DNA from: an uncultured Candidatus Saccharibacteria bacterium
GTDB lineage: Bacteria > Patescibacteriota > Minisyncoccia > Phycocordibacterales > UBA9973
Direction: 5' to 3'
DNA: 64,000 nt
Assembly: GCA_964544225.1 (NCBI GenBank)
Contig: CAZIZK010000002.1
Span: 69,452 to 133,451 of the forward strand
Shown here: positions 43,848 to 53,751 of the stretch, piece after piece
How positions within the stretch are numbered: position 1 is the stretch's first letter
Layout: the number at the start of each line of letters is the position of its first letter
Translations under genes and position numbers: made by a program
The notes under the pieces: generated by a model
What the model saw: the letters and a program-made list of their open reading frames with translations, nothing else
Databases searched by the model: none
Told to the model about the DNA's origin: nothing

Positions 43848-43888
43848 TATTATACCACAAAGGCCCAAGTGTCCCCTTGGGCCTTTGG
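43848..43888 (-). promoter_or_regulatory. Terminator-hairpin + TTTGTGGTATAAT extended -10 module
   Basis: Minus strand reads ggcccaaggggacacttgggcc-TTTGTGGTATAAT. The same module recurs at 46401-46438. Confidence 0.55.
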
Positions 43889-43923
43889 TATTTAACTATC
43901 TAGGTATATAATGCCCTTATGAT

Positions 43924-44041
43924 CCCGTTAGAGGCCGCGGTCACGCTAATCAATACGGAATTGTATCATTTAATTTATAATATTAATTAGGTTAGGAGTG
44001 TTTCTATTTTAGAATATAGATCGCGACCTGCCTCTAACGGG
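43924..44041. mobile_element. MITE-like element, copy A
   Basis: CCCGTTAGAGGCCGCG..CGCGACCTGCCTCTAACGGG terminal inverted repeats with an AT-rich interior. Flanked by ATGAT (43919-43923) and ATGAAT (44042-44047). The right flank is the start codon of the PhnA-like gene. Confidence 0.6.
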
Positions 44042-44281
44042 ATGAATAATGAAGAAGACGAAGATGTAGTAATACAGCGCGATGCCAACGGTAACATATT
44101 GGCCAATGGTGACAGTATTACACTGATAAAGGATTTAAAATTAAAAGGTAGTAGCACTGTGATAAAGAAAGGCACAAAGGCCAAGAATATTCGCCTGACC
44201 GATGTTGAGGGCGAGATAGAATGCAATATCGACGGCATGCGTGGTATAGTCCTAAAAACTGAATTTATCAAAAAAGCCTAA
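44042..44281 (+). CDS. PhnA-domain protein (lacks the N-terminal zinc ribbon)
   Basis: DANGNILANGDSITLIKDLKLKGSS..KKGTKAKNIRL matches the E. coli PhnA C-terminal domain. Confidence 0.65.
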   Translation: MNNEEDEDVVIQRDANGNILANGDSITLIKDLKLKGSSTVIKKGTKAKNIRLTDVEGEIECNIDGMRGIVLKTEFIKKA

Positions 44282-45408: not shown

Positions 45409-45417
45409 TTGAGTTTA

Positions 45418-45451
45418 AACATTCCTACATTCTCAAGAATGTAGGAATGTT
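45418..45451. promoter_or_regulatory. Perfect 16-2-16 palindrome P1 (candidate ArsR-family operator)
   Basis: AACATTCCTACATTCT-CA-AGAATGTAGGAATGTT. Lies 10 bp upstream of the tag ATG and overlaps the last codons of the regulator gene. Confidence 0.6.
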
Positions 45452-45717
45452 TTTATGAACTTTGTAATTTGTTTTCCGTATGGTGAAAGAGAGTGCGCTA
45501 CTTGCCTACCCTTGTAGTTTTTATTTAGCAAGCCTGCTTGCACCAGTCTGCGAGTATGTTCAGAAACTGTTTTAAAATTAGCTTTCAATTGTGTTGCTAT
45601 TTCGTCGACAGTAATACCATCATGCTTTTCAACTATCAGGAGGATGTCTATTCGACGATGATTCGCGATACCTTTGAAGTGCCTCTCGATCTGTTTACTT
45701 GTTTTGATCTTTTGCAT
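45433..45717 (-). CDS. ArsR/SmtB-family winged-helix transcriptional regulator
   Basis: ..RRIDILLIVEKHDGITVDEIATQLKANFKTVSEHTRRLVQAGLL.. HTH. 94 aa. Leaderless-type promoter (TGATATAAT 8 nt before the ATG). Confidence 0.75.
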   Translation of the reverse strand: MQKIKTSKQIERHFKGIANHRRIDILLIVEKHDGITVDEIATQLKANFKTVSEHTRRLVQAGLLNKNYKGRQVAHSLSPYGKQITKFIKTFLHS

Positions 45718-45814: not shown

Positions 45815-46180
45815 TTACTTCCCTTCTACGAATTTGAGTGATATTGAATTTACACAGTGGCGGGTGTTTTTGTCTGTTAGCATCTCGCCTTCGAATACGT
45901 GGCCTAGGTGGCCACCACAGTTTGCACAAGTGATCTCTTGCCCATAATATGGATCAATATAAGAGGCTCTTTTGATAGCACCTGGAATCTCCTGATCAAA
46001 ACTTGGCCATCCGCATGTATATTCGAATTTATCCTTTGAGTCATATAGCGGTGCATTGCACTGCTTGCACACATATACACCCGTTGCTTTGTTATTCACA
46101 TACTCACCGGTAAAAGGCATCTCGGTCCCTTTGTCCACTATCACCCTCTTCTCTTCCTCTGTTAGTTGATTTAATTGCAT
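45815..46180 (-). CDS. msrB: Peptide methionine sulfoxide reductase MsrB
   Basis: SelR domain with CxxC..CxxC zinc site and catalytic RHCVNS. Start taken at MQLNQLTEEEK. The ORF caller's 5' extension overlaps the upstream small gene. Confidence 0.85.
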   Translation of the reverse strand: MQLNQLTEEEKRVIVDKGTEMPFTGEYVNNKATGVYVCKQCNAPLYDSKDKFEYTCGWPSFDQEIPGAIKRASYIDPYYGQEITCANCGGHLGHVFEGEMLTDKNTRHCVNSISLKFVEGK

Positions 46181-46190
46181 GTTATTTTTT

Positions 46191-46394
46191 TTATAACGGA
46201 ATTCCAAAACATAAAGATCTTTCTTCGGCATCTGCCAATTCTTTTGTAGGAGTATAGGTAAAGCCATAGCAATGCTTCTTTTCATTTGCCTCCCATGCAT
46301 CGTATATTTCTTTTGTTGTATAACCTGGGTACGTAACAAATGACTTTGGGAAAAAGAATACTGCTATTAAAATAAAAATTATCAAGTATTTCAT
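46191..46394 (-). CDS. Small secreted/membrane protein upstream of msrB
   Basis: MKYLIIFILIAVFFF signal/TM. 67 aa. Leaderless-type promoter 6 nt upstream. Confidence 0.35.
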   Translation of the reverse strand: MKYLIIFILIAVFFFPKSFVTYPGYTTKEIYDAWEANEKKHCYGFTYTPTKELADAEERSLCFGIPL

Positions 46395-46400
46395 AAGCCA

Positions 46401-46438
46401 ATTATACCACAAAGCCCGAGTGTTCCCTCGGGCTTTTT
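46401..46438 (-). promoter_or_regulatory. Terminator-hairpin + TTTGTGGTATAAT extended -10 module
   Basis: Minus strand reads gcccgagggaacactcgggc-TTTGTGGTATAAT, with the -10 six nt before ATG 46394. Confidence 0.55.
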
Positions 46439-46445
46439 ATTATAA

Positions 46446-46483
46446 TGAACATTCCTACATTCTCAAGAATGTAGGAATGTTCA
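46446..46483. promoter_or_regulatory. Perfect 18-2-18 palindrome P3
   Basis: TGAACATTCCTACATTCT-CA-AGAATGTAGGAATGTTCA, upstream of the small-protein/msrB operon promoter. Confidence 0.6.
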
Positions 46484-46487
46484 TTGG

Positions 46488-46739
46488 TTAATTTTTTCTC
46501 CAGCGTGGGGCGAAGCGGATCATGAATGTGTAAAACTTGGCTAATATATATGGGGTGCCACTTTTACGCATGGATTCGTAGCAGACTTTTTGAAACTCTT
46601 TCAAGTCATTGCCTTCGTAACAAAGCTTGCCGCCCTTGTAGCACAGGCTACAATAAATATCGCTCTCCCTTACCCCTGGGTCCTTACTAAAAGGCATTAA
46701 ACAACTCTGACACGCATTACATTTTTTGTTTTGGCTCAT
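46488..46739 (-). CDS. Putative zinc-ribbon domain protein (Zn_ribbon_2-like)
   Basis: CNACQSCLMPF..YCSLCYKGGK pattern. Confidence 0.5.
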   Translation of the reverse strand: MSQNKKCNACQSCLMPFSKDPGVRESDIYCSLCYKGGKLCYEGNDLKEFQKVCYESMRKSGTPYILAKFYTFMIRFAPRWRKN

Positions 46740-46942
46740 ATAAATATATTACTAAAATATTTTCTAGAGGTCAAAAATTTTTCAAATAAATACTCTATTT
46801 GACTAACGATTTACTTAATAACAGATTGGACTAAGTATAAAATATCCTTACTAAATAATAATCTTTTAGTAAAATTAAAAGTTTTATTTTAATGTAGCTT
46901 TAAATTTAAATACAAACTAGCGCTTTATTCATCTATTGAATT

Positions 46943-47815
46943 ATGCTATATTATTTTTATATGCAATTACAATACTTTACATATTTTTTAAACCCTCTGA
47001 GTACTCCGAGCTTATTTCCTGAAACGAGACCTAAAAAGGAAATATTCAGACAAGTCTTACAGCAGAAAAACTTAAAATATAAGGCTTCTGGATCAGATTT
47101 AGCCTACGTTTTTGAAAAAGAAGATGGAGATTATATAGTTGCTAAATTAGGCAAAAAGCAATCTCTTAAGAGAAGCCTTCCTCCAGAAGAAAGGTTTGAA
47201 GAAACTATTGATGAAAATTGGCCACATTGTTTAGTTTTTTTTAATTTAGATGAAAATCCTAATACAGGTCAAAAAATTGCATTTGAATATAAAACAAATA
47301 TTTTTAAAACACCCTTTGTCCAACTGCAAGATCTTGCTGAGGAACTAAATATTGCACTTTTTAATTCTAATTATGCTGTGTCAATTCATCCAGTAACAGA
47401 AGAGAGAAAGTTTTGGGATATTGTTAAAGAAAACCAAGGTAAGATTGAAAAAGTAACTTTTTCTTTTAATGCACCAAATCTTTTTAATCTAAAAAATAAT
47501 TTAAATGACGATTTAAGAAATGCTCAGGAGAAATTTGGACTAACAAAGGCAACCGTTGAATTCGAAAATCCACAAGGGAAACTCACTCTTTCAGAAGATA
47601 ATGATTTTTTACAACAAGGCGTAGAGTATGTTCGTAAGGGAGGAGGAGACTTTCATCTTAAAATAAAAAATAGTAAAAGCAGAATAATCAGAAGTGAGGA
47701 TGGTGTGATGACTAAAACAGTTGATTATGAAGATATTGAGGCAAGAATAAAATTTGATAATCCTAATGTTATCAACAGTGCAATTAAAAATATTTTTGAT
47801 AAAATAAAAGAATGA
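46943..47815 (+). CDS. Hypothetical protein (AT-rich island)
   Basis: 290 aa ORF with no recognisable motif. Overlaps the next gene by ATGA. Confidence 0.4.
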   Translation: MLYYFYMQLQYFTYFLNPLSTPSLFPETRPKKEIFRQVLQQKNLKYKASGSDLAYVFEKEDGDYIVAKLGKKQSLKRSLPPEERFEETIDENWPHCLVFFNLDENPNTGQKIAFEYKTNIFKTPFVQLQDLAEELNIALFNSNYAVSIHPVTEERKFWDIVKENQGKIEKVTFSFNAPNLFNLKNNLNDDLRNAQEKFGLTKATVEFENPQGKLTLSEDNDFLQQGVEYVRKGGGDFHLKIKNSKSRIIRSEDGVMTKTVDYEDIEARIKFDNPNVINSAIKNIFDKIKE

Positions 47816-48264
47816 GATTTCTTGGATTTTTATTTTTAACAATTCTAATTTCTGCTGGTATTATTACTGTAGATATTCTTCTTCCTGGAAATTTTTTAAT
47901 TAACTTTATCAATAATCATTACATTGAAACCTTTGCTTCTTTAATTGGTTTCAATCTTGCGTCAGTAACATTTTTACTCGGACAACTTATTACCATTGAA
48001 GCAACAATAAATCAAGAGTCTATGTTCGAATCAACAAGAAAAGAAATAAAGCACAATGCATTCTTTTTAATTTTTATTTTTGTTGTAGCTTTACTCCTTT
48101 TAACTTTTAGACCTGATATAGGTATAACTGGAAGATTTGACCTAAATATTGCTTATTATGTGGTTAATACTTTAGTAATTTCTATATTTTTAATGGCCTT
48201 GTTTGCTATTTTTGAAATATTGAATTCTGTATTTTCTATAGGTAAATTTTTTAAGAAAAAATAA
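47812..48264 (+). CDS. Hypothetical 4-TM membrane protein (AT-rich island)
   Basis: 150 aa with 4 hydrophobic helices. Translationally coupled to the 46943 gene. Confidence 0.4.
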   Translation: MRFLGFLFLTILISAGIITVDILLPGNFLINFINNHYIETFASLIGFNLASVTFLLGQLITIEATINQESMFESTRKEIKHNAFFLIFIFVVALLLLTFRPDIGITGRFDLNIAYYVVNTLVISIFLMALFAIFEILNSVFSIGKFFKKK

Positions 48265-48372
48265 TTTTTGATATAACAACAAGAATTAAAATTGTAAAAT
48301 TAATTAATCTCAAGTTGTTTTTTACCTATCTTAATAGGTCATTTATATCAATCGGTTCATGTGATTATTTTA

Positions 48373-49122
48373 CTATTTTTGAAATATAAATAAATGCTCG
48401 TGCATTATTAATAAGAAATTTGAATCTTTTGATTTTTGAACCCAAAATCCTGTAGCCTTGCAATTAAATTGCCTCTTAATAATGTCTTCTTTTAATTCAA
48501 AACCAGAATCTAAAAACTTTTGCATTACTTTGTATGCCAATGGCTGATACATTTTATTACGCCTTGTGTCCCCCATTAGAATTGCACAGAATTTACCTGG
48601 TCTTAATACTCGATATAATTCTTTTGCGGTCTTTTCAATTTCATAACAAAACTTGTCTATATCATGAATATTTGAAATATCGTCCTCTATTGTTCCATCG
48701 CTATATTTAATTATGTCTGCATATGGTGGATGAGTAAGAGCAAAATCTATCTCTTTATCTTTAATAAAGCTTAAATTTCTGGCATCACCCTTCACCACTC
48801 TTTGTTTAGATTTATTATCAACAATGAAATCTAAAGCTTTTATAGTTCTTTCAATAGCTACTTCATTAACATCTACACAAGTAATATGCCTATTTAAAAT
48901 TTTTGCTTCTATTGCTGTCGTGCCACCACCAATCATGCAATCTAGCAAATGGTCGCCCTCTTTTGAGTATCTTAAAATTAAATTCCGTACAACCTCTGGT
49001 GCCCAATTACCTCGCCAATCTGAAGTATGTGTAGCCCAGTTACCACGACGAGGAAAAGCCCAGACCGTAGTACACTCCATTTCAAAACTTTCAGGATGAA
49101 GTTTTAAATTTTTTTGAGACAT
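48373..49122 (-). CDS. DNA methyltransferase (N4-cytosine/N6-adenine, PF01555-like)
   Basis: Motif I LDCMIGGGTTAIEA and motif IV THPPYAD. The PF01555-like FP..L region precedes motif I. Confidence 0.7.
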   Translation of the reverse strand: MSQKNLKLHPESFEMECTTVWAFPRRGNWATHTSDWRGNWAPEVVRNLILRYSKEGDHLLDCMIGGGTTAIEAKILNRHITCVDVNEVAIERTIKALDFIVDNKSKQRVVKGDARNLSFIKDKEIDFALTHPPYADIIKYSDGTIEDDISNIHDIDKFCYEIEKTAKELYRVLRPGKFCAILMGDTRRNKMYQPLAYKVMQKFLDSGFELKEDIIKRQFNCKATGFWVQKSKDSNFLLIMHEHLFIFQK

Positions 49123-49130
49123 TGTTTTTT

Positions 49131-49751
49131 TTACTTTTTATTCCAACAATTTTTAGGAAAACCTATTTTCTTTAAAATATCTGTAAACGCAACATATTCA
49201 ATATGTTGTTCTTTGTAAAAAGCCAAGCTTTCTTTGAGTTCGATTGTTTGATTATTTTTATCTAAGAGATCTCCAAAAGCGAACTTTTCTCTAGCTTCAT
49301 ATTCTTGATAGCCAACTAAAATTATTTGTAGTGGTTTGTGATAAAGCCTTGGAACTTCTCCATATTTCAAAGGTACACCAAGAATTTTTTCGCCCGCAGT
49401 ACCTGGAGTAGACCAGCTTCTACCTTTTACTTCATAAACATAATCGTCACATTCTAAATCTGGATCATATTTTTTAGTTCTTAATGAGCTTTTTTTAGTG
49501 GTGGTAGACCTAACATTTTTTCTACCGAGCTTAATAAGTGCCTCCATTACTAATTCTTGGCAAAGTACAGTTGTCCATTGTTTTCCGCCAATGGTATTAA
49601 TAACCTTATTGCCCCAATCTTGCTCAATTTTCTTTGATTCTTTAAGCCTTTTCTCGCTTTCAGTATTACGCAAAGAAATATCAGTGATACCTTCATAGCA
49701 CCATTGAATAACTTTTGGATTATTAAGCAAATTTAAATTTTCTTTTTTCAT
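49131..49751 (-). CDS. Putative restriction endonuclease (PD-(D/E)xK-like)
   Basis: ECDDYVYEVKG resembles a (D/E)xK catalytic motif. Gene is immediately upstream of, and co-oriented with, the methyltransferase. Confidence 0.4.
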   Translation of the reverse strand: MKKENLNLLNNPKVIQWCYEGITDISLRNTESEKRLKESKKIEQDWGNKVINTIGGKQWTTVLCQELVMEALIKLGRKNVRSTTTKKSSLRTKKYDPDLECDDYVYEVKGRSWSTPGTAGEKILGVPLKYGEVPRLYHKPLQIILVGYQEYEAREKFAFGDLLDKNNQTIELKESLAFYKEQHIEYVAFTDILKKIGFPKNCWNKK

Positions 49752-49771
49752 AAATATTTTTTGATGTGAAA

Positions 49772-50860
49772 TTAGAATGGAATATCTAAAGGATCAATTT
49801 CTTCATTTTGAGTGTTAGGATCAGGTACATAATAAAATGTGTCTTTATTAATTTTATATGTTTCAATATATTTCTTTTTTATAGCTTCCCAATCTTCACT
49901 AGAAATATATCTGTCCTTTAAAGATGTTAGTAATAATTCAATTAAAGAAATATTATAATTACAAATTAATTTATAAAAATACTCATTAGATACTTTTATT
50001 CTGTCCTTTTCCGAATGTCGAACATCAAATATGCTGTTATTGAGTGTTTGGCATGTTTTTGCCATATCACTAATTATTACCATAAATTCCGCCTCCCTTT
50101 TTTCTTTTTCATCTGTGTTAACAACAATTAAGCTTACTAGGTCTTTTTTCAATCCATCTATAACATTCTTCTTTGATTCAGTTTCATCGCTAAAAATTAA
50201 TCCTAAAATCTCTGCAGATATTTTGGATGCATTTATGTAGTCATCTTCATCAAAGAAACTATAGTAAGAATTTATTTTTTCTGATAATTTAACATCTTTC
50301 AACTGAGATGCAATATTTCTCAAATCCTCTCCTTCGTTTTTAGTAATTAAGTCTTCTTTTATATAGTAATTAATTTTTTCTTCCTTAAAGATATTGTTAA
50401 TTCTATTAATGACATCTTTTCTTTGATTTGCTTTAGAAAAAAGAATAGTTGCTTCTAGTAAATCAAAAAGTATGAAATCATCGTAAACATCTTCCATAAT
50501 TTGTTTTTCATCATTACTAACAACTGATTCACCTTTAAATTTAAATGGGTAGTAATCAAAACTATCAGAAAATCTATACCCAAGTTCTGATTCAGAAAAA
50601 TCATCTATAAGTTTTTTGTTAAAGTAGTGGGCCTTGTCTTTTCTATTTTCAATTAGAATATATTTCTCTAAAAAAAGATCTGAGCTTGAAATAAATTTCA
50701 ATAGGGAAACTAATCTAATTCTTGTTTGAGAATTAATAATTTCATTCCTTTTCTGCCTATTTAAGTAACCTATTCTGGAATCTCTATTATTAACCGTGCT
50801 AGACCTATAAAAATTAGACGCAAATCCATCTCTTTTGTTTCTTTTTGAGAAAAGTTTCAT
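49772..50860 (-). CDS. Hypothetical protein within the restriction-modification island
   Basis: 362 aa, helical and charged. No recognisable motif. Tightly packed between the Dam-like methyltransferase and the putative nuclease. Confidence 0.4.
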   Translation of the reverse strand: MKLFSKRNKRDGFASNFYRSSTVNNRDSRIGYLNRQKRNEIINSQTRIRLVSLLKFISSSDLFLEKYILIENRKDKAHYFNKKLIDDFSESELGYRFSDSFDYYPFKFKGESVVSNDEKQIMEDVYDDFILFDLLEATILFSKANQRKDVINRINNIFKEEKINYYIKEDLITKNEGEDLRNIASQLKDVKLSEKINSYYSFFDEDDYINASKISAEILGLIFSDETESKKNVIDGLKKDLVSLIVVNTDEKEKREAEFMVIISDMAKTCQTLNNSIFDVRHSEKDRIKVSNEYFYKLICNYNISLIELLLTSLKDRYISSEDWEAIKKKYIETYKINKDTFYYVPDPNTQNEEIDPLDIPF

Positions 50861-50861
50861 A

Positions 50862-51830
50862 TTAATAATTAGTTACTAATACCTCTGTAATTTTTCCGCG
50901 ACCTGTGCCTTTTGAGTTTATCGATCTGCCAGCTTCGATTTTATTGATTTTCACCTTCTTGTCTTTTAATTCAGAATAGATCTTATTTATAAAAGGTGTA
51001 TCTGAATTTGAAAGCATAACAAAACAACCTCTGTTATGGAGCTGATAAAATACATCCCTGAGTTCTATCTGTTCTTTATCAAGGAAAGAATCGGCAGTAT
51101 AAGCAGTAAATGAAGAAGTTTTGTTGATTGGGTAATATGGTGGGTCAAAGTATATAAAGTCCCCTTTTTTAGCTTTCTTTAACACATTTTTATAATCTCC
51201 ATGATTAATTGTCACTTTTTGTAAAGAAGCTGAGACTTTTTTAAGATTCACCTCATCACAGATAAGAGCATTTTTATTTAATCCAAAAGGGGTATTAAAT
51301 CCACCTTGTTTATTAACACGATACAGGCCATTGAAACATGTCCTGTTTAAATAAATAAACCTTGAAGCTATCTCTACCTCTGATAAATCTTTAATATTTT
51401 TTGCACGAATTTTTAGAAAATAATCTTTATTGTTTTTATGTTTTTTAAGAGTTCCAATCAATTCATCCACATTATTTTTTATAACATTATAGGTAACTAC
51501 TAGTTCATTATTTAAATCAGAAAGTATTGCTTTTTTAGGAAGTAGGTCAAAGAAAACAGCACCACCCCCTACAAATGGTTCAAAATATGTGTTCTTTAAT
51601 GCATCAAAACCTTCAGGAGGATAGAAACCTAAATCACGAAATTGTTTTAATAATTGTCTTTTGCCACCTACCCATTTTACAAAAGGTTTTGCTTTTTCAT
51701 TAATTATTTTTTTAATTTCTTCAGGAACAAACTTACCTTTTGTGTGGTGTAAAATATGTTGAGCAAAAATTGAATTTATATCAAAATCCTTTTGAATTTT
51801 TTTAGATATTTCGTGTGTTGTCATGCTCAT
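50862..51830 (-). CDS. Dam-family DNA N6-adenine methyltransferase (D12 class)
   Basis: PFVKWVGGKRQLL N-terminal motif and IYFDPPYY catalytic motif. Start taken at MSMTTHE (ORF caller used a TTG at 51863). Confidence 0.85.
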   Translation of the reverse strand: MSMTTHEISKKIQKDFDINSIFAQHILHHTKGKFVPEEIKKIINEKAKPFVKWVGGKRQLLKQFRDLGFYPPEGFDALKNTYFEPFVGGGAVFFDLLPKKAILSDLNNELVVTYNVIKNNVDELIGTLKKHKNNKDYFLKIRAKNIKDLSEVEIASRFIYLNRTCFNGLYRVNKQGGFNTPFGLNKNALICDEVNLKKVSASLQKVTINHGDYKNVLKKAKKGDFIYFDPPYYPINKTSSFTAYTADSFLDKEQIELRDVFYQLHNRGCFVMLSNSDTPFINKIYSELKDKKVKINKIEAGRSINSKGTGRGKITEVLVTNY

Positions 51831-51859
51831 ATATTTTAGCACAAAATATTGATTTTTAG

Positions 51860-52033
51860 TCAATTTAATTCCTTTAGCAAATCCTCATAATCAAGCGGCT
51901 CAGTGACCATTTCGACGAGGCCGTCGTTGGAGACTTTCCGTTCATTCTTTGGCCTGTCTACGTATATCTCTACCCCATTGTTGTCGGGGTCGCGTAGGTA
52001 GATGGCCTCGGACACGCCGTAAGGCAGTAATAT
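51860..52033 (-). pseudogene. Fragment of a VOC-family (glyoxalase/ring-cleaving dioxygenase) gene, C-terminal 57 codons only
   Basis: Minus-strand frame reads ILLPYGVSEAIYLRDPDNNGVEIYVDRPKNERKVSNDGLVEMVTEPLDYEDLLKELN*, with an in-frame stop immediately upstream and no start codon. Typical VOC beta-alpha-beta-beta-beta C-terminus. Confidence 0.55.
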
Positions 52034-52975: not shown

Positions 52976-53044
52976 ATAGCTATTATACCACAATAAAAAA
53001 GAACCCTTTTACCAGACAGCGACCCGGTCGCTGGTTGGTTTGAC

Positions 53045-53113
53045 CCCGTTAGAAGCCGCCCTCTTTAGTAAAAGAGTGCTACGGTCACCTTGGGGCGACC
53101 TGCTTCTAACGGG
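53045..53113. mobile_element. MITE-like element, copy B (short)
   Basis: CCCGTTAGAAGCCGCCC..GGGGCGACCTGCTTCTAACGGG terminal inverted repeats. Perfect 7 bp direct repeat GTTTGAC on both flanks (53038-53044 and 53114-53120). The right copy forms a TTGACA -35-like hexamer. Confidence 0.6.
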
Positions 53114-53166
53114 GTTTGACAATAGGGTTATTTAGGAGTACTTTTAAAAGAAAAAGGAGGTAAATT

Positions 53167-53751
53167 ATGTTCCAAAAAACAATTTTTCTAGGCTTGTTGG
53201 ATCAATACGCAGATGTATTTTCCCACAAAGAAGATGATGGCGACTTGGTTATAAATCTGAAGGACAATGTAAAGAAACGCATTTTTGAAAGATTCTGGCA
53301 AGAATTTATCGACCTTGCGTGGTTGATAGGGCTAAAGAATACAAAAGTGAATGTGGAGTTGCGTTACAAATCAAAATCAGCTTCTGATATAGGTGATTAT
53401 TATCTAACAGGTAAAATTATATCACTTAAAAATGAATTATTTGTAGATTCTTATACTTCAATCTTTATGGATACTAATCAAATGCAATCCATGTCTGTAA
53501 GGAGGAATACTCTTGATTCAAATGATGATCTGATAGTTGATTATAAGTTAAATAATCATTTAGAGGATCAGGTGCGAATTTTCTGGAGTTTAGAGCCCCT
53601 AAGTGACATTGAAAGGTTTGATTGTATATTAAAAGAAGTAGAAAATGAATTTATTTCTCATACTAATAATCGTGCCTATTATCAGATCGGACTGGCTATA
53701 CCGATCTATAAAATAAAACGCCTTCGGTTCTATTCCATATACGAAGAATAG
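53167..53751 (+). CDS. Hypothetical protein
   Basis: 194 aa ORF with a strong SD (aaaggaggt). No recognisable motif. Confidence 0.4.
   Translation: MFQKTIFLGLLDQYADVFSHKEDDGDLVINLKDNVKKRIFERFWQEFIDLAWLIGLKNTKVNVELRYKSKSASDIGDYYLTGKIISLKNELFVDSYTSIFMDTNQMQSMSVRRNTLDSNDDLIVDYKLNNHLEDQVRIFWSLEPLSDIERFDCILKEVENEFISHTNNRAYYQIGLAIPIYKIKRLRFYSIYEE

Follow-up and report, generated by a model that had tools for sequence, protein, structure and literature searches.

Short repeats that fold into hairpins are known from several bacterial systems. The attC sites of integrons act as folded single strands of 57-141 bp, in which a GTT/AAC outer helix is followed by an unpaired spacer and then by an inner helix that carries extra-helical bases and ends in a variable top. 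The REP sequences and REPINs are hairpin-forming extragenic palindromes of a size similar to that of the repeats described here, which carry a GTAG-type tetranucleotide beside the hairpin and are moved in trans by RAYT; to our knowledge, neither target duplications nor placement at start codons have been reported for REPINs. The Correia elements of Neisseria have 26-bp repeats and a TA duplication. These elements, also known as CREE or NEMIS, are hairpins of ~100-150 bp found upstream of genes, with which they are co-transcribed, and they act via promoters and RNase III cleavage (PMC10969869). The Rickettsia palindromic elements (RPE) are in-frame palindromic insertions in unrelated housekeeping genes, translated as extra peptide segments (PMC10969869). 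The present analysis concerns three repeats, here called copies A, B and C, in a stretch of 64,000 nucleotides (the 64-kb window) from an uncultured Candidatus Saccharibacteria bacterium (contig CAZIZK010000002.1, positions 69,452 to 133,451). These repeats are likely to be copies of a non-autonomous, hairpin-forming mobile DNA of the MITE kind (miniature inverted-repeat transposable elements), with a T...A sub-type that occupies start codons and a generalist C...G sub-type, and the gene behind a start-codon copy may be kept expressed through translational coupling.

Copies C, A and B lie at 38292-38410, 43924-44041 and 53045-53113, and each has the 11-mer CCCGTTAGARG, without mismatch, at one boundary and its reverse complement at the other. 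These positions, the 11-nt ends and the flanks (ATCCAT on both sides of copy C, GTTTGAC on both sides of copy B, and ATGAT and ATGAAT on the left and right of copy A) are as a first, sequence-only reading of the stretch had given them. The 11-mer occurs six times in the window, as three pairs, where 0.8 occurrences would be expected even with one mismatch, and a count of six was reached in none of 100 shuffles; the full paired-end pattern had no match in shuffled sequence, and a search of the window for additional copies or half-copies returned nothing besides A, B and C. The predicted folds of all copies are much better than those of shuffled sequences (z of -4.3 to -7.8). Copy A (43923..44042, plus strand) is of the long sub-type with T...A ends, in which the core named above is closed by the terminal pair T43923/A44042, and its predicted fold reaches -42.6 kcal/mol (z = -4.7). 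Copy C (38291..38411, minus strand) is also of the long T...A sub-type, its core being closed by a terminal pair in the same way. Copy B (53044..53114, plus strand), of the short sub-type with C...G ends, measures 71 nt including the terminal pair and is predicted to fold as a three-way junction (-42.8 kcal/mol, z = -7.2). Base A44042, at the edge of copy A, doubles as the initial A in the start codon of a PhnA-like gene, and base 38291, read on the minus strand, is the A of the ATG of the gene beside copy C, the two copies having identical polarity relative to their respective genes. Copy B is intergenic, with a terminator-like hairpin (53017-53033) on one side and a Shine-Dalgarno-led gene (53167-53751) on the other. 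The window as a whole has ~39% G+C and is ~90% coding, and its proteins have their best matches among metagenome-assembled genomes (MAGs) of Patescibacteria.

Pattern searches beyond the window, which the sequence-only reading had proposed, recovered many further copies. A scan of genomes, one per species, with the paired-end pattern gave at least 120 loci, as did a metagenome scan with variant ends in which position 11 was changed on both sides, and the same ends are thereby known from >240 public loci, mostly in MAGs of the candidate phyla radiation (CPR, or Patescibacteria) from many lineages. Among the matches listed for the genome scan, the carriers, according to their record titles, include Saccharibacteria, Paceibacterota, Nomura-, Kaiser-, Yanofsky-, Kerfeld-, Levyi-, Gribaldo-, Falkow-, Jorgensen- and Staskawiczbacteria, together with a few MAGs from outside the CPR (Planctomycetota, Elusimicrobia, Syntrophobacter, Smithellaceae and Gammaproteobacteria). 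The family is not confined to one lineage, as it is found in many CPR lineages and in a few other phyla. A viral collection gave two matches only, from which the idea of phage carriage gains little. The analysis covered 284 full copies in all, in a first and a second set, none of them with less than 60 nt of flank. Their lengths are 63-129 nt, to which hairpin-only forms of 25-55 nt must be added, this range being partly fixed by the search pattern, and decayed copies are rare (~5 in 0.93 Mb).

In comparison with the described systems, the repeats behave in most respects as MITEs do, given that they are short (25-129 nt), code for no transposase, have 13-bp inverted repeats and a target duplication, are present as many dispersed copies (>240 loci), and differ in their presence between relatives (empty sites at loci L124 and L129, see below). 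They are a real MITE-like family, and so a known kind of element, which is set apart by new traits, namely the CPR-wide spread, the sub-type that rebuilds start codons, the stop codon borne by the repeat with the enriched small frame that ends there, and copies that lie in frame inside essential genes. In contrast to MITEs, the elements have unrelated interiors between ends that are invariant across phylum-level lineages, and the complementarity of these ends is perfect also at the positions that vary; one sub-type is nearly confined to start codons, and no parent insertion sequence was found in 1.8 Mb of flanking DNA. The likeness to the Correia elements lies in the formation of hairpins, the similar size and the position just upstream of genes, but the duplication here is T-N-N-A and the ends read CCCGTTAGA, the Correia repeats being of unrelated sequence. 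Unlike the present family, moreover, the Correia elements are not known to be placed at a start codon or to rebuild one, and no built-in stop or small frame has been described for them.

With the attC sites, the elements share the length range, the GTT/AAC outer helix, an unpaired spacer, an inner helix and a variable top. An identity with attC was nevertheless rejected, as the order GTTAGA...TCTAAC reverses the attC order 5'-RYYYAAC...GTTRRRY-3', and the copies are single, dispersed and flanked by duplications, with no cassette arrays; no integrase gene was seen near the copies. Palindromes derived from IS200/IS605 and the REP/RAYT system, which are not known to have terminal inverted repeats or target duplications and insert 3' of a fixed tetranucleotide, were also rejected on account of the inverted repeats, the duplications and the variation of the duplicated core seen here, and the loci examined yielded no RAYT-like gene. 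One further resemblance is to the IS1380/piggyBac group, which presumably has CC(C)..TAGA ends and duplications of 4-5 bp (TTAA in piggyBac), although this likeness is short, may be due to chance, and is taken as an unconfirmed lead only; no transposase of this group was found, no search aimed at it having been made. In Rfam, only tRNA was found at the gathering thresholds, permissive scans of the three copies remaining at chance level with bit scores far below the thresholds, and no description of the element was found in the papers searched, by sequence string and by topic, in agreement with the initial impression that the repeat is not a described family.

The most direct evidence of mobility comes from empty sites. 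For copy C, a sister strain from another sample (L124, an 11-kb contig) encodes a YdjM-like protein 99% identical to that beside the copy, with flanks of ~97% identity on both sides, and reads ...GATATAATATTTGGC-ATGGAT-ATATTGG..., i.e., it is without exactly the 119-nt element and one ATGGAT. Two remoter orthologues of the YdjM-like gene read TATAAT-N6-ATGGAY and have no element. For copy A, a relative with a PhnA protein of 96% identity (L129) reads TATATAAT-GCCTTC-ATGAATAAC, where GCCTTC is followed by ATGAAT and the upstream sequence is recognisably the same, a comparison that was made by reading the sequences and not by automatic alignment. The PhnA-like gene is also without an element in the sister-strain locus L128 (TATAAT-N6-ATG) and in the relative L131 (TATACT-N6-ATG). 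For copy B, the search recovered the same strain only, and no empty site. Given that the empty sites lie in close relatives and read TATAAT-N6/7-ATG, insertions A and C are, to judge from these sequences, recent, and each is located at the start codon of a leaderless gene. Both the mobility of the elements and the ancestral leaderless gene whose start codon served as the target, which had been proposed for copy A from the window sequence, are thereby borne out.

The traces of these insertions can be read in the window. The original leaderless promoter and relic start beside copy A (43885..43922, plus strand) form a promoter-like site, TTGGTA-16-TATAAT, with TTGGTA at 43885-43890 and TATAAT at 43907-43912, the latter 6 nt before the upstream ATG of the relic ATGA (43919-43922), which has one A fewer than the ATGAA of the empty site. 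On the other side, the ATG of the PhnA/YjdM-like gene (44042..44281, plus strand; 79 aa; Pfam PF03831 over residues 13-79, E = 5.9e-30) consists of the last A of copy A and the duplicated TG. This arrangement of TATAAT, 6 nt and ATG on the left and of the PhnA-like ATG as the right repeat had already been recognised; that copy C has the same geometry had been overlooked. There, the gene for a YdjM-like membrane protein (37731..38291, minus strand; 186 aa), whose orthologues are leaderless, begins with an ATGGAT that abuts the edge of the element, and the relic start with its extended -10 box lies beyond (38411..38432, minus strand), as a second ATGGAT (38416-38411) placed after a 7-nt spacer downstream of TGATATAAT (38432-38424).

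Elsewhere in the family, locus L080 carries two copies of ~95% identity at separate sites. Homologous genes in different genomes were also seen to carry a start-codon element each (L058:3716-3831 with L095:2966-3080, and L063:3013-3077 with L115:3361-3458), the elements differing in sub-type and duplication, which suggests that the same kind of gene start was hit repeatedly and independently. Conservation of the elements at orthologous positions, which the sequence-only reading had named as a sign of a structured regulatory RNA, was not encountered, given that the homologues carry different sub-types and the close relatives are without elements.

The ends of the element are 13-bp perfect inverted repeats, Y-CCCGTTAGA-NNN...NNN-TCTAACGGG-R. 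In 42 distinct sequences the terminal 13-bp helix is 100% paired, with four pairs that change on both sides and just two single-side changes, both of them to G-U. Its invariant part is the 9-nt core CCCGTTAGA/TCTAACGGG, which was fixed by the search pattern, and positions 10-12 and the terminal pair covary, the terminal pair and position 13 having been left free in the search. Inward of the terminal helix there is a CGC/T internal loop, then a second helix or a local hairpin, and then the variable interior, which is either short and GC-rich (~63-79 nt in total length) or long and AT-rich (~98-123 nt). The second helix is 79% paired, with both-side changes at all six pairs. The inner arm GCCGC/GCGACCTGC, noted early on, is real, but in place of an arm with an ACCT bulge it is better represented as a 3-nt/1-nt loop (CGC versus T) followed by a helix of 6-7 bp.

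The flanking direct repeats, which had been read as 6-7 bp long, are present across the 284 copies, but with a different length. The flanks match as direct repeats only in a 6-nt register, where the successive positions have identities of 0.56/0.79/0.73/0.68/0.73/0.48 (first set) and 0.41/0.85/0.73/0.73/0.79/0.41 (second set), with 0.73-0.85 at the core positions of the latter versus ~0.25 in other registers. The 88 copies with identity at all four inner bases show agreement at the two outer ones in just 65% and 50% of cases, and the base at the left edge is complementary to that at the right edge in 93-95% of copies. The gene-oriented start-codon copies have T as the left base in 44 of 47 cases, the matching position of the right repeat being A, T and C in 25, 14 and 7 cases, respectively. 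Given that the outer positions of the repeat disagree and that the bases at the two edges pair instead, a duplication of 6 or 7 bp was rejected, and the duplication is most likely of ~4 bp, T-N-N-A (occasionally 3-5 bp, for example the TTTGA read at 53039-53043 and 53115-53119 around copy B), accompanied by one complementary terminal pair that belongs to the element.

The two sub-types differ in the sites that they occupy. Copies that abut an ATG or GTG opening at least 50 codons number 74 of 131 in the first set and 46 of 135 in the second. Elements with T...A ends are found at start codons in 106 cases and elsewhere in 14, i.e., 106/120 (88%) are at start codons, with TGAA (41), TGGA (15) and TGAG (6) as duplicated cores, versus 23 at start codons and 124 elsewhere for elements with C...G ends, in which the cores are TTTA (47), TTGA (15) and TGAA (15). 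The T...A sub-type separates the A of an ATGRA start from its TG, so that the old ATG stays beside the leaderless promoter and the start is rebuilt from the last A of the element and the duplicated TG. In 27 of 95 copies the relic ATG is preceded, at a distance of 5-8 nt, by a -10-like hexamer, compared with 5 of 95 at control spacings, with a sharp peak at 6-7 nt. Where C...G copies lie at starts, the upstream relic reads ATGGAC or ATGAAC and the gene now begins with GTGGAC or GTGAAT (L017, L019, L020, L032 and L093). Still other copies coincide with a -35 box or an extended -10 box, the promoter being kept by the downstream repeat (L091, L021, L075, L083 and L068).

The short C...G sub-type, to which copy B belongs, is found in intergenic DNA and also in frame within genes, including essential ones (SecA, DnaE). 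Clear in-gene copies in long frames number 12 in the first set and six in the second, with lengths of 63-102 nt, and as all of them are multiples of 3 nt and free of stops, splicing or bypass of these copies is unlikely. Their translation is mostly x-P-V-R-S...S-N-G-x, and the host genes code for RsmH, a leucyl aminopeptidase (PepA), a glycosyltransferase, SecA, the DNA polymerase III alpha subunit (DnaE), UvrC, PurD and a polyprenyl synthase. In PurD and DnaE, the matches to the N-terminal domain (GARS_N) and the helix-hairpin-helix domain (HHH_6), respectively, are 24-25 residues longer than the profiles. These copies are inserted in frame and read through in the same manner as RPEs, but RPEs measure ~150 bp and are restricted to Rickettsia, whereas the in-gene copies share their ends with the start-codon sub-type, and the likeness is one of behaviour. 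In two Planctomycetota MAGs (L074:4877-4939 and L094:3652-3714), 63-nt copies were read by eye in frame within a prepilin-like N-terminal leader, MRKGFT|element|FTMVELMAVLIILG, which places the family also in phyla outside the CPR and within signal sequences.

The start-codon copies are strongly polar. Scored by the asymmetry of the internal loop, 45 of 47 turn the same side toward the gene, as against three in-gene copies in one orientation and four in the other. In the orientation of the gene, the 3' repeat reads C-TTC-TAA-CGG-G, which places a TAA 4 nt before the rebuilt ATG. A frame that runs from an ATG to this TAA is present in 32 of the 59 long copies of the first set, compared with 10 and 6 for the other two frames and 9-11 in the reverse orientation. 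In the merged non-redundant sets, after the removal of near-duplicates (90 clusters from 92 elements), the count is 34 of 73 long T...A copies, versus 9 and 10 in the other frames and 12-14 in reverse. The TAA frame stays open for 19.7 codons, versus 10.9 and 13.7, and contains 3.4 ATGs per 100 codons, versus 0.9-1.6. A Shine-Dalgarno-like motif precedes the small-frame ATG in seven copies and in none in the reverse orientation, and the peptides, of 4-27 residues, are conserved no more than the helices impose. In copy C, the small upstream reading frame (38296..38328, minus strand) encodes MYDNLVIIYF*, its TAA being the stop inside the 3' terminal repeat, 4 nt before the ATG of the gene, and in the predicted fold of the transcript the terminal helix takes in the A and the U of the gene's AUG.

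As a separate observation, three related long copies (L080:326-434, L080:6263-6372 and L099:5991-6099) have the same frame of 19 codons, MNKIKIINKGG/E..CF*, which is preceded by GGGAG or CGGAG and 7 nt, and ends at the TAA of the repeat, the differences between the copies falling inside the frame and leaving it intact. Two other causes of the polarity were rejected, namely an internal promoter directed outward, as -10-like hexamers number 93 in the gene orientation versus 81 in reverse, and the action of the reverse orientation as a terminator, as terminator-like features number 6 versus 8. The -10-like hexamers are not enriched before the small-frame ATG, and no usable -10 at the right distance was found in the 3' repeat by reading its sequence.

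Translational coupling is known to be most efficient when the distance between stop and start is very short, and acts by unfolding or by re-initiation (PMC12548453). In the terminal helix the first bases of the AUG are paired; ribosomes translating the small frame would open this helix, and their termination at the UAA beside the rebuilt AUG would let the downstream gene be translated by coupling. Given the polarity, the UAA 4 nt before the AUG, the enrichment of the small frame and these rules of coupling, we infer that the small frame may keep the downstream gene translated.

Several findings weigh against this account of a MITE-like family with coupled start-codon copies. In the second set alone, the three frames are found in 10, 7 and 6 of 33 copies, a difference that is not significant, about half of the long copies are without an ATG-initiated frame, and copy A itself is one of these, given that its TAA frame is closed 6 codons upstream and has, as its sole in-frame candidate start, an ATT after AGGAG. 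One target rule is also insufficient for duplications of TTTA, which are never found in T...A elements and are frequent in C...G ones, and the 4-bp length of the duplication is a statistical estimate. No autonomous element was recovered, as in the 1.8 Mb of flanking DNA no gene lies between two ends spaced 0.14-6 kb. Finally, the perfect complementarity of the covarying ends exceeds what a protein-recognised repeat needs, and hints at a single-stranded hairpin stage, or at a role in the RNA, outside this account. A bolder proposal, which can be put forward tentatively, is that of an element lineage specialised for the start codons of very compact genomes in which leaderless genes abound, through its terminal purine, the stop in its repeat and its small frame, by which the gene is not silenced, and moved as a single-stranded hairpin by an enzyme outside the known classes of elements.

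The missing frame bias in the second set and the absence of an ATG small frame from copy A would also fit a different explanation, by which the start-codon elements are neutral passengers whose frame and polarity derive from shared ancestry, the gene being translated independently, for example after cleavage by RNase III. The terminal helix of 13 bp and the following one of 6-7 bp are long enough for RNase III, and such processing has been described for Correia elements (PMC10969869). This explanation is doubtful, however, since the bias toward the TAA frame survives the removal of near-duplicates (34 versus 9 and 10), and the polarity of 45/47 is accounted for neither by terminator-like features (6 versus 8) nor by -10-like hexamers (93 versus 81).

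With regard to the mode of transposition, the elements might move as a folded single strand or as a small circle, through a site-specific or HUH-type enzyme (attC-, Xer- or REP/RAYT-like) and not through DDE cut-and-paste, in which case the flanking repeat would be a crossover or overlap sequence carried along. Such a route would agree with ends that are 100% complementary even where they vary, with a second helix that has fixed bulges and a variable top, as in attC, with the GTAG/CTAC-flanked hairpin found beside one end in many copies, and with the palindrome of 11-6-11 (or 13-4-13) that joined ends would give. It would also agree with the absence of a transposase from every copy and with the manner in which the sub-type tracks the duplicated core (T...A with TGRA, C...G with TTTA), as if the target were remembered. 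On the other hand, the GTT...AAC order is opposite to that of attC, the target arms are not conserved, and the mismatched outer positions of the repeat fit a 4-bp stagger better than the 6-8 bp overlap of tyrosine recombinases; we also know of no target duplications in the IS200/IS605 and RAYT systems. Movement by this route is thus regarded as unlikely.

The enzyme that moves the MITE-like elements was sought in several ways. A Pfam scan of ~30 of the ~81 open reading frames (ORFs) of the window found no transposase, in keeping with the absence of such a gene noted in the sequence-only reading, and when 790 ORFs from 120 loci were clustered all against all, no family dominated that could represent a recurrent partner. 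Locus L168, considered as a candidate autonomous element, was rejected, as it contains separate short copies instead. Stand-alone ORFs with a GIY-YIG nuclease domain (79-102 aa) recur near the loci (L121:236-544, L126:2597-2884 and L127:1249-1488), and are probably just common in such genomes.

Reduced and compound forms of the element were also observed. Hairpin-only forms of 25-31 nt, made of the two terminal repeats and a short loop, are present at L041:6015-6041, L168:9739-9768, L187:2913-2937 and L033:3725-3752, among others, and some of them have the same kind of flanking duplication (e.g., atttac|..|gtttac). Composite or nested arrays of several element units exist as well. One composite, in which two 28-nt hairpins surround a third, is common to a contig classed as viral (L122:2496-2585) and a Smithellaceae MAG of deltaproteobacterial origin (L033:3725-3814), and its flanks are inverted, not direct, repeats.

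The preference for start codons might be attributed to insertion that is actively directed there, for example by the open complexes of RNA polymerase at leaderless starts. ATGRA opens 39 of the 81 genes of the window, and the ATGRA sites outside the elements comprise 37 gene starts, 24 intergenic sites and 345 sites within genes, from which a share of ~60% at start codons would be expected if TGRA is preferred and in-gene hits are lost. The observed 88% of T...A copies exceeds this value, the cut falls between positions +1 and +2 of a leaderless transcript, and other copies are found on -35 or extended -10 boxes, all of which speaks for direction. Nonetheless, the baseline of 60% already covers most of the effect, 68 of the 95 start-codon copies are without a recognisable leaderless promoter, and copies exist within genes and at other intergenic sites, which makes directed insertion an improbable explanation. 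Since about half of the genes start with ATGRA and in-gene hits are purged, a target preference for TGRA together with selection appears to account for most of the placement at start codons, an extra directing mechanism being possible and not required.

That the repeats are a conserved, structured regulatory RNA (leader- or riboswitch-like) belonging to the genes and not mobile DNA, for which their fixed orientation directly 5' of starts, their very stable predicted folds and the compensatory changes in their helices would speak, is highly improbable and largely refuted by the sister strain and close relatives that are precisely without elements, and is further opposed by downstream genes unrelated to each other, by the short duplications that flank the copies, by copies within coding sequences and promoters, and by the absence of a match in Rfam.

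As mobile DNA, this would be the first family of elements described as common to the CPR, a radiation presumed to be poor in mobile DNA, and an example of the way in which selfish DNA may persist in genomes that are ~90% coding, by landing at start codons or at in-frame positions, where the damage is repaired by the ends of the element itself. The elements mark leaderless genes, and the natural pairs of filled and empty alleles could be used for the comparison of leaderless and coupled initiation. Caution is also called for in annotation, given that in SecA, DnaE, RsmH and other proteins the extra 'PVRS...SNG' segments of 21-34 residues derive from the element. The invariant 9-bp core, in turn, provides a handle for finding the mobilising enzyme.

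With regard to the remaining content of the window, a -10-like hexamer lies 5-8 nt before the start in 23 of its 81 ORFs, and a Shine-Dalgarno-like 4-mer is present in 7 of 81; given this, leaderless gene starts look common in the source organism (at least about a quarter of the window genes). Two perfect palindromes with a common arm (..AACATTCCTACATTCT / AGAATGTAGGAATGTT..), at 45417-45452 and 46444-46485, lie ~1 kb apart and flank the region of a SelR-like gene; they are unrelated to the hairpin element, and may represent an operator or a terminator. Finally, positions 46000-52000 have 29-32% G+C, compared with ~40% elsewhere, and this stretch contains genes for two DNA methyltransferases, an N6_N4_Mtase (48373-49122) and a D12 Dam-like one (50862-51863), and several ORFs without a Pfam match, such as those at 49131-49751 and 49772-50860, which is probably an acquired restriction-modification or defence island.

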